A DNA stretch of 62,469 nt, from NCBI GenBank assembly GCA_023622465.1, contig JAMNZE010000093.1:1-62469 (forward strand), given 5' to 3'. Shown here one piece after another: positions 21,223-32,461 of the stretch (the first letter of the stretch is position 1; each line of letters begins with the position of its first letter). Below the pieces are notes generated by a model, which had not been told where the DNA came from, did no database searches, and saw nothing but the letters and a program-made list of their open reading frames with translations. The DNA is from Bacillota bacterium (GTDB lineage: Bacteria > Bacillota > UBA994 > UBA5500). The position numbers were made by a program, and so were the translations under genes.

Positions 21223-21302
21223 GTTCCCTTTTTACCGTATGGCTAATAGTATGTAGTGAACTGCGTACGTGGTATCTATACCTGCTATGAATGGGGGTTA
21301 GC

Positions 21303-22465
21303 ATGGTAAGAGCAACGCAGAAAGTTGGCAGACGCCAAATGGTGCTCGGAATCTTTGTGGCGAAAGCTTACGCTGAGCAGTTTAAAGGGGATAAGCCCAT
21401 CTATGAAGCAGAAATTTATGCCAAGGCGGCAAAGCATAGGAATGTGCGGCTTTATTACTTTACAGCGGAGGATGTTTCGGGCGTAGGCGGAAAAAGGGGG
21501 AAAAAGAAGATATGGGGGTGGTCCCTGAGAGGTAACAAATGGAGGCACAGTCGGGTACCCTGGCCCCATGTGGTATTTGACCAAGTTATCGATCCTGAAG
21601 GCGCTGAGAAAAGGACTGTTAGCCGACTGCGACGCAGCAAGAATTTCGCTTGGTTAAGTCCTCGAACTGGTCTGCCTAAGTGGCTCACCCATAAGATCTT
21701 GGCCGGGCATAGCAGTTTGGCCCGATTGCTACCAGAGGAAAGGCGACTAAAATCGGTGGATGACTTGGACTATATGCTAGATAGACATAAATCTGTTCTC
21801 GTTAAGCCCGATCTGGGCAGTCGGGGACGCGGAATCACTATGATTTGGAGAGAGCCTGAAGGTACCTATGGGCTGCGCTATTCTGGTAAGGAAGAACAGG
21901 TTAGTGGATTAACCCTAGCAGAGGCTTACCAATTGGCTAGCAACTATGCCGAAGAGGACAATCTGGTTATCTCGCAGCAGATACCCCTACTGCGCGTAGG
22001 AAATAGTCTGGCCGATATGCGAATAATCATGGGCAAAAACCTGCAGGGAAAATGGTTACCGGTGCTTACTATTATGGGCGTGGGGAAAGAGGGGAGTTTT
22101 GTAACCAACTGGAGCATGGGAGCTGAAGAGATCCCTCTAGAGCAGGGGCTGGCGGCTGCCGGATTGCCAGCAGAACAGGTGAAGGCTTTAATTGATCAAG
22201 TGTTAGAGGTTTCCCATAAGCTGGCAAAGGCTCTGGAAGCGGGGAGGGGCACCTTATTGAAATCGGGTTGGACTTAGCCTTTGATACCGATTTAAGGCTT
22301 TGGTTTATCGAGGCCAACGCTAGCCCCGGTAAGGAAGCGGAGGATTCCGACACCATTCCTCCCTATTTCGCCTGCATAATTGATGGTGCCCTGCATTTTT
22401 GGAATAGCCGGCAAAAGCGACGTTCTCGGTGGCGACATCGTCGCCGACGAGAACAGGATAGATAA
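21303..22465 (+). pseudogene. YheC/YheD-family ATP-grasp gene interrupted by a frameshift
   Basis: The ORF 21291..22277 carries the N-terminal and central ATP-grasp part. The family's C-terminal motif (IEIGLDLAFDTDLRLWFIEANASPG) continues in another frame (open from 22220, listed as ORF 22268..22465). The shift falls in the G-runs at 22241..22249. Confidence 0.6.
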
Positions 22466-23859: not shown

Positions 23860-23888
23860 TTGACGCAAAAAAATGTCAAATTTATAAT
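23860..23888 (+). promoter_or_regulatory. Sigma-A-type promoter of the femX-murE pair
   Basis: TTGACG (23860..23865), a 17-nt spacer, then TATAAT (23883..23888). Confidence 0.55.
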
Positions 23889-23927
23889 GGGGACAAGGCC
23901 GATTGGAGATGGAGGCGTTAACTAATT

Positions 23928-25004
23928 ATGTTGCGTTTAGTGAAGCCAGATGAAACTGGCTATTTTGATACCTTGATTGCCAATTCTACCGGACCCGAGT
24001 TTGCGCAAACAGCTGCCTGGGCCCGCTTTAAGTCTCAGTCGTGGCGTCCCCGGCATTATCTTTTTGAGAAAGCGGGCGAGCCGGTGATCGCCATTACTGT
24101 TTGGTTAAGGAAAATTCCTCTATTACCCTATTACCTAGCCTATGCCCCCCGCGGCCCTATTTTATTGACTGTTGAAGGTAAAAAATTCCTGACGGGATTT
24201 TGGGAAGCCGTCCGGGCCGAATTGCGTCAGCAGGGGGCTTTTGCTCTTAAGATTGATCCGGCGTGGACCGATAAAAGCTTGGCGGAGCAGTTGAAAAAAA
24301 TAGGCTTTAGAGAGGTAATAAGCGATCATCCCTTTGGGGGCGTACAACCTAGATTCACCTTCCGCTTGGATATTGGAGCCGAGCCGGAAGAGCTTTTAGC
24401 TTCTTTCTCTAAAAAGCTCCGTTACAACGTCCGCTATCCGGGCAAGCAGGGCGTAGTCTATTCTCAGGGCACCAAAGAGGACGTCCCCGCTTTAATGGCC
24501 GTCTTAGAAGCCACTAGTCGCCGCAGGAATTTCTTAGGGCGGAGTGCGGAGTATTATGAGCGCCTATTAGACGAAATGGGAGACCAGGCGGCGCTTATTA
24601 TCGGCACAAAAGATGGACAAGTGGTGGCGGCAAGTATTACCATTGTTTGCGGCCGCCAAGCTTGGGCCGTTTACGGAGGTATGTCACGCGAACATGCCCG
24701 GCTGCGGGCCTATTACGGACTCAATTGGGAACGTATGTTGTGGGCTAAAAGCAAAGGTGCTACTTCCTTTGACTTTTCTGGGGTGCCTGTCGATCGTTCA
24801 GAAGATTCCCCTTTATACGGGCTCTATCAGTTCAAAAAGAGCTTTGGCGGCGACCTGGTTGAATTTATTGGTGAATATGAACTACCCATTCGCCCCTTCC
24901 TCTATTGGTGCTGGCAAACCTTTGCGCCCACCTTAATGAAAGTGATGAGGTGGTGGGTATCCCGTAGGCGCAACGGAAGCGAACAGCGAGGGGAGGAAAA
25001 GTGA
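23928..25004 (+). CDS. FemAB-family peptidoglycan bridge-formation aminoacyltransferase (FemX-like)
   Basis: 358 aa with a FemAB-like GNAT-duplication pattern (FAQTAAWARFK, YYLAYAPRGP, AWAVYGGMS, LYQFKKSFGG). Confidence 0.8.
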   Translation: MLRLVKPDETGYFDTLIANSTGPEFAQTAAWARFKSQSWRPRHYLFEKAGEPVIAITVWLRKIPLLPYYLAYAPRGPILLTVEGKKFLTGFWEAVRAELRQQGAFALKIDPAWTDKSLAEQLKKIGFREVISDHPFGGVQPRFTFRLDIGAEPEELLASFSKKLRYNVRYPGKQGVVYSQGTKEDVPALMAVLEATSRRRNFLGRSAEYYERLLDEMGDQAALIIGTKDGQVVAASITIVCGRQAWAVYGGMSREHARLRAYYGLNWERMLWAKSKGATSFDFSGVPVDRSEDSPLYGLYQFKKSFGGDLVEFIGEYELPIRPFLYWCWQTFAPTLMKVMRWWVSRRRNGSEQRGEEK

Positions 25005-26428
25005 TGAAGTTTGCAGAACTGGTGGAGGCTATTGCCAGTGGTCAAATCACTGTAACCGGTATAGAACACGATTCACGGCGCTTACGCCCCGGGGTCGTTT
25101 TTGTTTGTATTGTTGGCCAGCGCTTTGATGGCCATGATTTCGCTGAGCAGGCAGTGGCCGCTCAAGCCGCCTTTATTGTGGGAGAGCGTGCCCTACCCTA
25201 TCCCAATTACGTACAAGTTACCAACAGCCGGCAGGCATTGGCCGACCTGGCCTATGCCTATTACGGGAATCACAGTAAATCCATGCAGACGATAGGGATA
25301 ACTGGTACCAACGGTAAATCGACCACCTGCCATTTGCTTGCCAGCCTCTTAAATCGGGTCGGTATTCCCACCGGTCTCATCGGCACCCTAGGTGTCTTTT
25401 TGCCCGAGAATAACCGACTGGAGGAGCTTCATAATACCACCCCCGATGCGGTAAATATGGCGCGTCTGCTGGCCCAGCTAAGGCAGCAAGGGGCGCAGGT
25501 GGTGGCGCTAGAAATATCTTCTCAGGGCCTGGAACAGGAAAGGGCCCGTAATATAGAGTTTGCCGGGGTGATATTCACCAATTTAACCCAAGACCACCTG
25601 GATTATCATAAAACGATGGAGGCCTACTATCAGGCTAAACGAAAACTATTTCAGCTGCCCCACCGGCAAGCAGTTATCAATATCGATGATCCCTACGGGC
25701 GGCGCCTAGCCGACGAGCACCCCGATAGCTGGACTGTCAGCCTTTGTCGGCCAGCCCGTATTCGGGCCAGTGAAATCGATATTCGGGCCGATGGACTAAG
25801 CTTTCTTTTGGACATCGATGGCCGTAAACAACGGTTGTCAGCCCCTCTTTGTGGAGAGCACAATTTATACAATTTGTTGTTTGCCCTCGGGGGTATTGCT
25901 TGCTTAGATTTAGATCCTTTTGCTTTCCTAGAGGGAGTGCCCCATCTCACTTTACCGGAGGGGCGCTGGATGGTAATCGGCAATTCGCCCACCGTGGTTG
26001 TAGATTTTGCCCATTCTCCCGATAGCTTTGAACAGGTATTAAAGTTAGCCAGCCGGGTGGCTAAGGGTAAGATAATTACCGTCTTTGGCTGTACCGGCAA
26101 CCGCGATCGTAAGAAACGGCCAATAATGGGGGAGATAGTCAGCCGCTATAGCCAGTTTACGGTGCTTACCACCGATAGCCCGGGAGGAGAAGATCCGGAA
26201 CTTATTACCGCCGAAACTTTGCCTGGCATTCATATTCCCTATTTAGTTGAACATGATAGGGAAAAGGCCATTGCGGCGGCCATAGAGATGGCTGAGGTTG
26301 ATGACCTAGTGCTGATTTTGGGCCGTGGACATGAAGCAATCTTCGATTATGGTGCATATACGATTCCCCTCTATGACCCGGAGGTCGCTCGGCGCTGTTG
26401 GGAAAAGCGGCATCGAAGTTTAATCTAA
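25004..26428 (+). CDS. murE: Mur ligase, MurE-like (UDP-MurNAc-L-Ala-D-Glu : diamino acid ligase)
   Basis: It has the N-terminal HDSRRLRPGVVFVC..G..DGHDF, the P-loop GITGTNGKSTT, and EISSQGLEQER..FTNLTQDHLDYH. The ATG overlaps the femX TGA (GTGATG). The usual DNPR motif reads DSPG here. Confidence 0.8.
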   Translation: MKFAELVEAIASGQITVTGIEHDSRRLRPGVVFVCIVGQRFDGHDFAEQAVAAQAAFIVGERALPYPNYVQVTNSRQALADLAYAYYGNHSKSMQTIGITGTNGKSTTCHLLASLLNRVGIPTGLIGTLGVFLPENNRLEELHNTTPDAVNMARLLAQLRQQGAQVVALEISSQGLEQERARNIEFAGVIFTNLTQDHLDYHKTMEAYYQAKRKLFQLPHRQAVINIDDPYGRRLADEHPDSWTVSLCRPARIRASEIDIRADGLSFLLDIDGRKQRLSAPLCGEHNLYNLLFALGGIACLDLDPFAFLEGVPHLTLPEGRWMVIGNSPTVVVDFAHSPDSFEQVLKLASRVAKGKIITVFGCTGNRDRKKRPIMGEIVSRYSQFTVLTTDSPGGEDPELITAETLPGIHIPYLVEHDREKAIAAAIEMAEVDDLVLILGRGHEAIFDYGAYTIPLYDPEVARRCWEKRHRSLI

Positions 26429-26433
26429 CAGGC

Positions 26434-26472
26434 AAACCATACCTCTTGCTATTGGCAAGGTATGGTTTTTTT
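26434..26472 (+). terminator. Intrinsic terminator
   Basis: Stems AAACCATACCTCTTGC and GCAAGGTATGGTTT around a short loop, followed by a T-run. Confidence 0.75.
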
Positions 26473-29800: not shown

Positions 29801-29887
29801 ATGGTTAAATTAGGCCAAGCTCCCCATTGGGGATACTTGGCCTATTTAAATGGTTTTGGTAATCTTAGAATAAGGGGGGGGGAGTGC

Positions 29888-31321: not shown

Positions 31322-31498
31322 CCACCAATTTTCCGGATTAAGGGAGTGTGAACTTTTGCACTCTGATCGAATAGTAGCTCTTCGATTTTGGCGAGTCTAT
31401 AGGAGAACAGTTTTGTTATAATAAAGAAGGGTAAGTTCCTTGGGTACCATATTAGTGGGCATGTGGCTATTTTCACTACAATGATTGGAGGAGTATGT

Positions 31499-32461
31499 AT
31501 GAAGAAGAAGATCCTGATTACAGGGGCTCTCGGTCAAATCGGTTCCGAGTTGACCCTGCACCTACGCGACATCTATGGCGATGATAACGTGGTCGCCAGC
31601 GACCTCAAACCCTCGGTGCCAGAAGGTGCCTTGGAGAATGGACCCTACGAAGTTGTTGACGTAACCGATGCGGATCAGGTAGCTGCCGTTGTCAAAAAGT
31701 ACGATGTCAATCAGATCGTCCACTTGGCAGCCATCCTTTCCGCCGTAGGCGAAGCCAAGCCAACTTTAGCTTGGAATGTAAACATGGGCGGCTTATTTAA
31801 CGTATTAGAGGTTGCACGGGAAACCGGCTGCGGAGTATTTACTCCTAGCTCCATTGCGGCTTTTGGCCCTTCCACACCGAAGGATAAGACCCCTCAGGAT
31901 ACCTTGCAGCGCCCAACTACCATGTATGGTGTAACCAAGGTGGCTGGTGAAAACCTTTGCGACTACTATTACCTGAAATATGGCGTTGACACCCGCGGTG
32001 TACGCTTCCCTGGCCTAATTTCCTATGTGGCTCTACCGGGCGGCGGTACCACCGACTATGCGGTTGACATCTACTATGAAGCGCTACGCAACAAGAAGTA
32101 TTCTTGCTTCATTGCCGAAGGTACCTATATGGACATGATGTATATGCCCGACGCTCTCATGGCTATTTCAACTCTACTGGAAGCTAATCCGGACAAGCTG
32201 GTCCACCGTAACGCTTTCAACATCACAGCCATGAGCTTTGCTCCCGAAGATATTGCGGCTGAAATCAAGAAACATATCCCCGAGTTCGAGATTACCTATG
32301 ATGTGGACCCGGTACGGCAAGCCATAGCCGAATCTTGGCCCAACTCCCTTGATGACAGCGCTGCTCGGGAAGAGTGGGGCTGGAATCCGAAGTACGACTT
32401 GGCCAGCATGACCACCGACATGCTGGAAAAACTGCGTGTGAAACTGAATATCCAGGAGTAG
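31499..32461 (+). CDS. tdh: L-threonine 3-dehydrogenase, extended-SDR (UDP-galactose 4-epimerase-like) type
   Basis: It has a Rossmann TGALGQIGS, a YGVTK catalytic YxxxK, and a length and sequence pattern matching the SDR-type TDH family. ATG 31499 follows GGAGGAG. Confidence 0.75.
   Translation: MKKKILITGALGQIGSELTLHLRDIYGDDNVVASDLKPSVPEGALENGPYEVVDVTDADQVAAVVKKYDVNQIVHLAAILSAVGEAKPTLAWNVNMGGLFNVLEVARETGCGVFTPSSIAAFGPSTPKDKTPQDTLQRPTTMYGVTKVAGENLCDYYYLKYGVDTRGVRFPGLISYVALPGGGTTDYAVDIYYEALRNKKYSCFIAEGTYMDMMYMPDALMAISTLLEANPDKLVHRNAFNITAMSFAPEDIAAEIKKHIPEFEITYDVDPVRQAIAESWPNSLDDSAAREEWGWNPKYDLASMTTDMLEKLRVKLNIQE

Follow-up and report, generated by a model that had tools for sequence, protein, structure and literature searches.

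A conserved femX-murE2 operon and a possible second, branched peptidoglycan precursor in an uncultured family of Bacillota

We analysed a 62,469-nt stretch of DNA (the window), contig JAMNZE010000093.1 of the Bacillota bacterium assembly GCA_023622465.1, in which a gene for a FemAB-family transferase (femX) is directly followed by a gene for a paralogue of the peptidoglycan ligase MurE (murE2). The two genes form a real, conserved accessory operon, which is separate from the murE gene of the division and cell wall (dcw) cluster. On balance, and judging from sequence comparisons, we think it somewhat probable that this operon provides an accessory route, conserved in the family, to a second, branched peptidoglycan precursor beside MurE1, the diaminopimelic acid (DAP)-type enzyme of the dcw cluster. 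This reading is supported because the catalytic residues are kept, a separate dcw murE exists, the two genes are linked in all nine relatives, an arginine of the DAP pocket is lost throughout the MurE2 clade, and similar gene pairs recur elsewhere in the phylum.

The femX-murE2 operon and the second murE

The femX-like open reading frame (ORF; 23928..25004, + strand, 358 aa) and the murE-like ORF (25004..26428, + strand, 474 aa) overlap by one base, the A of the TGA stop codon being the A of the ATG start codon (GTGATG); murE2 could alternatively start at a GTG at 25001. A GGAGG sequence lies a few bases 5' of both starts, and that of femX (23911..23915, +), read from the sequence, is also kept ahead of the gene in relatives. 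The operon is preceded by a sigma-A-type promoter, TTGACG-17-TATAAT (23860..23888, +), which matches at 11 of 12 positions and ranks first in the region, and is closed by an intrinsic terminator (26434..26472, +) that consists of a hairpin at 26434-26468 and a run of seven T; a scan of the sequence reports the inner stem of this hairpin. The first-pass annotation of the window had described the same arrangement: its two ORFs, assigned to the FemAB family and to the MurE-type ligases, are borne out by the ORF calls and Pfam, and the shared promoter, shared terminator and GTGATG overlap that it listed are all found in the sequence.

The host genome is a 1.53-Mb metagenome-assembled genome of 154 contigs that is 89.8% complete. 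A search for a second murE in this genome, proposed beforehand by the first-pass annotation, found one on contig C100, directly after a penicillin-binding protein (PBP) gene. This murE1 is cut by the contig end, so that residues 1-239 are covered and the region of the DNPR motif is unassembled, and the fragment shares 77% identity with the dcw MurE from a genome of the same genus. All five relatives checked contain a complete PBP-murE1-murF series with DNPR in addition to femX-murE2. Since each of these relatives thus has two MurE genes, one of the dcw type with DNPR and one after femX, murE2 is a second ligase rather than the housekeeping enzyme. One of the annotation's readings was that an accessory module, distinct from the canonical murE of a dcw cluster, builds a different peptide polymer or a specialised spore or stress wall; the separation is supported, and the different polymer or special wall stays conjectural. 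It had also held that its proposal would fall if murE2 were the only murE and DSPG orthologues were shown to use meso-DAP, or if the FemAB-like gene were a non-wall acyltransferase unlinked to murE in relatives; murE2 is not the sole murE, and femX is linked to murE2 in nine of nine relatives.

In particular, a femX homologue with 60-83% identity is present in every one of the nine other family genomes searched, and murE2 is the next gene on the same strand in all of them, although the flanking genes vary within the family (a methyl-accepting chemotaxis protein gene (mcp), an NlpC/P60 gene, btuF, or an M14 peptidase gene with def). A database search retrieves about 19 MurE2 orthologues at 59-81% identity, after which identity drops to at most 42% for ordinary MurEs. 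In the MurE tree the MurE2 clade is fully supported, has a stem of 1.52 substitutions per site, and is not sister to the family's dcw MurE1. A possible FemX-MurE2 fusion in one relative (G008), an open frame of 859 aa, was rejected because a run of N spans the junction.

The family is known from uncultured members. Spo0A (205.6 bits) and SpoIVA (786.6 bits) were detected in the window's genome, which therefore belongs to an endospore-forming lineage. Several studies of compost, sludge and anaerobic digesters have yielded metagenomes that contain near-identical DNA. A near-identical contig from a compost run has one base absent at 23926 (2 nt before the femX ATG) and one at 29874 (in a nine-G run before cls), which represent strain variation or homopolymer error. 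Two runs labelled transcriptomic contain small exact contigs on femX and murE2; they were flagged as probably DNA and were not used as evidence of expression.

Within the femX promoter, across the -35 hexamer and the spacer, lies an inverted repeat, TTGAC-N10-GTCAA (23860-23879), which is possibly an operator. In eight of the nine relatives the promoter hexamers and the inverted repeat are kept and the 10-bp spacer is variable; in the ninth the site is located further upstream. This pattern bears on an alternative explanation, namely that the operon is a conditional wall-remodelling module, controlled by a regulator that binds the palindrome and used, for example, in stress tolerance, antibiotic tolerance or immunity to a hydrolase rather than constitutively. 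The conservation of the palindrome despite its variable spacer agrees with this, as does a triple NlpC/P60 gene downstream of the operon in two genera, and Fem-like immunity proteins have previously been published. However, the palindrome contains the -35 hexamer, so its conservation is partly due to the promoter; the neighbourhoods of the operon in the family genomes show no conserved regulator gene, and the hydrolase neighbours are not conserved family-wide. A genome-wide search for a regulon of the palindrome gave only three sites, against about 1.4 expected. We regard a conditional module of this kind as distinctly improbable.

Catalytic core, third-residue pocket and transferase

MurE2 contains the three Mur ligase domains (N-terminal PF01225, 1.8e-09; middle PF08245, 1.5e-48; C-terminal PF02875, 5.5e-27) and scores 449 bits with the MurE family model TIGR01085 (cut-off 257). 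Its catalytic set is kept: the P-loop GTNGKS, Glu171, Lys212 (KCX224 in Escherichia coli MurE), DHLDYH, and Arg367 (Arg389). The first-pass annotation's statement that the protein retains the N-terminal, P-loop and central Mur-ligase motifs was thus confirmed by Pfam and the alignments. The residues for the distal amino group are also kept, as Asp391 (E. coli Asp413) and Glu444 (E. coli Glu468). With the DAP-ligase equivalog NF001126, MurE2 scores 452 bits, and because this exceeds the cut-off of 373, annotation pipelines call it a DAP ligase.

The difference lies in the pocket for the third residue of the stem peptide, which is remodelled around this intact core. Codons GAT AGC CCG GGA at 26174..26185 (+) encode DSPG, which aligns with DNPR in E. 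coli MurE and DDPR in Thermotoga MurE, so that the Arg that binds the DAP carboxylate is lost. Judged by the DNPR motif that marks a meso-DAP-adding MurE (EC 6.3.2.13), MurE2 is therefore not of this type. The site is identical in the near-identical compost contig. The annotation had located this replacement correctly, and the loss of the Arg proves to be clade-wide: none of the 27 aligned clade sequences has it, the substitute being Gly in the window, Ala in the same genus (DNPA) and Glu in other genera (DNPE).

As described with the structure of Staphylococcus aureus MurE, the Asn and Arg of DNPR contact the distal carboxylate of DAP, and the Asp and a Glu contact the distal amino group (PMC3829189). 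This L-Lys-adding enzyme has DNPA and a negatively charged pocket, in which Asp406 and Glu460 hold the epsilon-amino group, and expression of a Lys-type MurE in E. coli leads to lysis (PMC3829189). Acidic or neutral replacements of the Arg would fit such a lysine pocket, and MurE2 is most simply read as an active ligase whose substrate is a diamino acid that lacks a distal carboxylate. Like the S. aureus enzyme (4C12/4C13), MurE2 is a three-domain Mur ligase in which another residue takes the place of the DNPR Arg (both S. aureus and the window's genus have DNPA) and the motif Asp and the Glu of GHE, the holders of the epsilon-amino group, are kept. Unlike it, MurE2 is nearer to the DAP-type models, reads DSPG in the window, and lacks the SSH His and YQ Gln described below; moreover, S. 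aureus has a single MurE only. With the meso-DAP enzymes of E. coli and Mycobacterium tuberculosis (1E8C, 2WTZ) MurE2 shares the fold, the P-loop, the carbamylated Lys, the Mg-binding Glu, the DH..H motif and the equivalent of Arg389, whereas the MurE2 clade lacks Arg416, the window also has Ser in place of Asn414, and murE2 lies outside the dcw cluster and is co-transcribed with femX.

Further differences appear when 17 members of the MurE2 clade are compared with the 111 nearest canonical MurEs. Three positions with at least 99% conservation among the latter are changed in the clade: the His of ExSSH (E. coli His186) to Gln, Met or Ile; Gly386 to Thr or Asn; and the Gln of GHExYQ (Gln471) to Phe, Ile, Met or Leu. 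On what the SSH His and the YQ Gln do, a literature search returned nothing usable.

The partner protein is a FemAB-family, aminoacyl-tRNA-dependent transferase (PF02388, 1.9e-47, 162.5 bits against a cut-off of 24) without the coiled-coil insert, since positions 237-304 of the profile are unmatched. In the PDB it matches best with S. aureus FemX (6snr, 119 bits), whose substrate is lipid II, and Weissella FemX (1ne9, 70 bits). The protein resembles the FemX of Weissella viridescens, a UDP-MurNAc-pentapeptide:L-Ala transferase (MurNAc, N-acetylmuramic acid; 1NE9, 3GKR, 4II9), in its length, in the absence of a coiled-coil arm and in five key residues: K35, R205, Y209, F302 and K303 correspond to Weissella Lys36, Arg211, Tyr215, Phe304 and Lys305 and are invariant in our alignment. 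In Weissella FemX, Lys36 and Arg211 bind UDP-MurNAc-pentapeptide by its phosphates and both of its D-Ala residues (PMC2655667), Lys305 has the catalytic role, and all Fem transferases share Phe304 (PMC9723616). The likeness has limits: the Weissella enzyme is only a 70-bit match, below the S. aureus one, and FemX scores 101.8 bits with the model of the Weissella-type UDP-MurNAc-pentapeptide-lysine N6-alanyltransferases (NF047883), which has a cut-off of 500. Its acceptor could be either nucleotide-linked or lipid-linked, and its top PDB match is the lipid II enzyme of S. aureus.

The residues kept and lost in the two proteins also bear on whether the product is peptidoglycan at all; it could instead be another nucleotide-linked peptide or a secondary metabolite. 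MurE2 has lost two near-invariant MurE residues, the SSH His and the YQ Gln, and Fem-like enzymes do occur in natural-product pathways. However, the motifs of the N-terminal UDP-binding domain are kept in MurE2, FemX keeps the Lys and Arg that bind UDP-MurNAc-pentapeptide, and the operon has housekeeping neighbours (cysS, cls, lysS) rather than a biosynthetic cluster and is conserved vertically in the whole family. We consider a product other than peptidoglycan very improbable; a second type of peptidoglycan stem fits the retained UDP-MurNAc-type N-domain of MurE2 and the counterparts of Lys36 and Arg211 in FemX.

Proposed route, recurrence in the phylum and alternatives

In the route that we propose, MurE1, which is of the DAP type by its DNPR motif, would supply DAP stems, and MurE2 would load a third residue with a distal amino group and without a distal carboxylate, most likely L-Lys or else L-Orn, onto an acceptor of the UDP-MurNAc-dipeptide type. 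MurF would complete the pentapeptide. FemX would then acylate the free side-chain amine, using an aminoacyl-tRNA as the source of the amino acid; both its donor and its acceptor are inferred. The branched stems would yield bridged (A3-type) cross-links alongside the DAP stems. Both stem types may be made simultaneously, with the operon presumably expressed from its sigma-A promoter, which may carry an operator.

The nearest precedent in physiology is Lysinibacillus (Bacillus) sphaericus, in which Tipper and colleagues reportedly found in the 1970s two adding enzymes, giving a vegetative wall with L-Lys and a spore cortex with meso-DAP; our literature search returned nothing usable on this precedent. 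The likeness is that of an endospore former with one DAP-adding and one non-DAP-adding third-residue ligase, as described for L. sphaericus and predicted for the window. Unlike the proposed route, L. sphaericus is said to form a D-Asp bridge by an ATP-grasp ligase and not by a Fem enzyme, and it belongs to an unrelated lineage. Stage-specific use of the ligases is also said to have been demonstrated there, whereas for the window's operon it would be a conjecture. A more elaborate version of our proposal would place two stem chemistries in one cell cycle, with branched non-DAP stems in, for example, the vegetative wall and DAP stems in, for example, the cortex, the promoter palindrome as the switch, and, in view of the lost SSH His and YQ Gln, the addition by MurE2 of something less ordinary than lysine; we hold this version to be tentative and rather unlikely.

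Gene pairs of a similar kind occur outside the family. We surveyed 201 sampled genomes of the phylum, using a threshold of E <= 1e-90 for MurE matches, and found at least two matches in 22 of them. Among the 20 multi-MurE genomes outside the family, a FemAB gene is present in six, and in four of these no more than 3.3 kb separates it from the extra MurE, which has EDPG or DNPK. A FemX-linked MurE without the Arg is found in the genomes designated G114, G129, G151 and G137, and Bacillota bacterium B4G8H2-02 carries three MurEs, one with DNPR and two with DNPA, one of the latter lying beside femX. These five genomes resemble the window's family in having an extra Arg-less MurE near a FemAB gene in addition to a DNPR MurE, but they differ from it in MurE sub-lineage, motif (DNPA, EDPG, DNPK), gene order and spacing. 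Among the FemX-linked cases, it is only in the window's family that the SSH His and the YQ Gln are lost together and that the genes are tightly coupled behind a conserved promoter.

In the FemX tree, the family's FemX lies on the longest internal branch, and the B4G8H2-02 FemX is its sister. For MurE, a shared origin for the two groups without the Arg was not rejected by an approximately unbiased (AU) test (p = 0.33), which does not demonstrate one either. The genome MAG288 was set aside as uninformative: its FemX is sister to the family's, but its only MurE-family match belongs to a different class of Mur ligase. Many extra TIGR01085 matches in other families of the phylum (loci L136-L146), with scores of 307-350 bits, form a distinct Mur-ligase class, in which IRGNRG-type sequences replace GGDRD and the DNPR region is absent. 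The literature that we searched held no usable description of the femX-murE2 pair or of the wall types of its relatives.

Anaerobic Bacillota commonly have a FemX homologue, with 32-39% identity, as a stand-alone gene. For example, four genomes (Neomoorella, Desulfitobacterium, Desulfosporosinus and Syntrophomonas) each have a stand-alone FemX and a single DNPR MurE. This qualifies the first-pass annotation's premise that the branched stem peptides of Fem-type enzymes are not expected with directly cross-linked DAP-type walls, and FemX alone is no argument for a non-DAP wall.

These genomes lend some support to the alternative that both ligases add DAP, MurE2 being a relaxed or LL-DAP-preferring isozyme, and that FemX attaches Gly or another amino acid to the epsilon-amino group of DAP, as in LL-DAP-Gly (A3-gamma) walls. 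Several of the four genera are described as having LL-DAP in their walls, and the above-cut-off score of MurE2 with NF001126 is consistent with a DAP substrate. On the other hand, the DAP-type organisms with FemX retain the Arg, so that the combination of DAP and FemX does not need its loss. Moreover, the Arg is gone from every MurE2, and the Glu that replaces it in most genera would repel the distal carboxylate (PMC3829189). The stem of 1.52 substitutions per site is also unexpected for a redundant DAP ligase. For these reasons we consider two DAP-adding ligases unlikely.

Several points nevertheless weigh against a second, branched precursor. As a whole sequence, MurE2 is closer to the DAP-type models than to the L-Lys model, and with the L-Lys-type equivalog NF010628 it scores 229 bits, below the cut-off of 536. 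The motif alone is insufficient to set the specificity, since an A409R mutant of S. aureus MurE gained no DAP activity (PMC3829189). Without the SSH His and the YQ Gln, MurE2 may have an acceptor or an added residue that is less ordinary than Lys. FemX homologues are common where the single MurE is of the DNPR type, and FemX could thus branch DAP stems. MurF would have to take both kinds of tripeptide. Finally, all members of the family are uncultured.

If the femX-murE2 route to a second precursor is real, a whole family of spore formers from compost and digesters has two stem peptides made by two MurE enzymes, and the operon is a natural case in which third-residue specificity and branch formation co-evolve as a tightly coupled unit. 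There would also be a practical consequence: since MurE2 is named a DAP ligase in databases, the predicted wall type, innate immune ligands and antibiotic targets would be wrong for this lineage. No new principle is involved, in that Lys-type MurE, Fem transferases and spore formers with two ligases are known, and second copies of MurE are fairly frequent in the phylum.

Neighbouring genes

We also considered whether genes near the operon belong to the module. A YheC/D-type ATP-grasp gene (21291-22277) was rejected, because it is a separate unit from which the operon is parted by a minus-strand btuF with its leader region; such a gene is near the operon in the same genus only, and one other genome has it at a distance of about 5 kb. 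The ATP-grasp gene (21291-22465) seems to be frameshifted, since a 383-aa homologue from the same genus aligns in two frames (21330-22268 and 22241-22417). The aminoacyl-tRNA synthetase genes cysS and lysS were rejected as dedicated tRNA-charging partners of FemX, each being the sole copy in the genome.

In six relatives, a gene divergent from femX encodes an M14 peptidase of about 550 aa that is carboxypeptidase T-like and has no leader peptide (for example, L119:6541-8202 (-), L121:5908-8130 (-) and L124:11101-13259 (+)), and in most of the six it is followed by a second peptide deformylase gene (def). In the window, btuF abuts the femX promoter where these relatives have the M14 gene and def. 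These two genes were rejected as required partners of the operon, because they are absent from the window locus and, at another place, the genome contains just one homologue, a 47% paralogue.

In the G000 genome, contig C49 (19031-20146) has an 884-aa open frame with Mur ligase domain matches, which is a candidate cyanophycin-synthetase-type gene. Downstream of the operon, the window contains a gene for an NAD-dependent epimerase/dehydratase (31463-32461), and mcp, nlpC/P60 and cls lie between it and murE2; in one relative (L120) the epimerase/dehydratase gene is directly 3' of murE2, and in two others it is less than 1 kb away.

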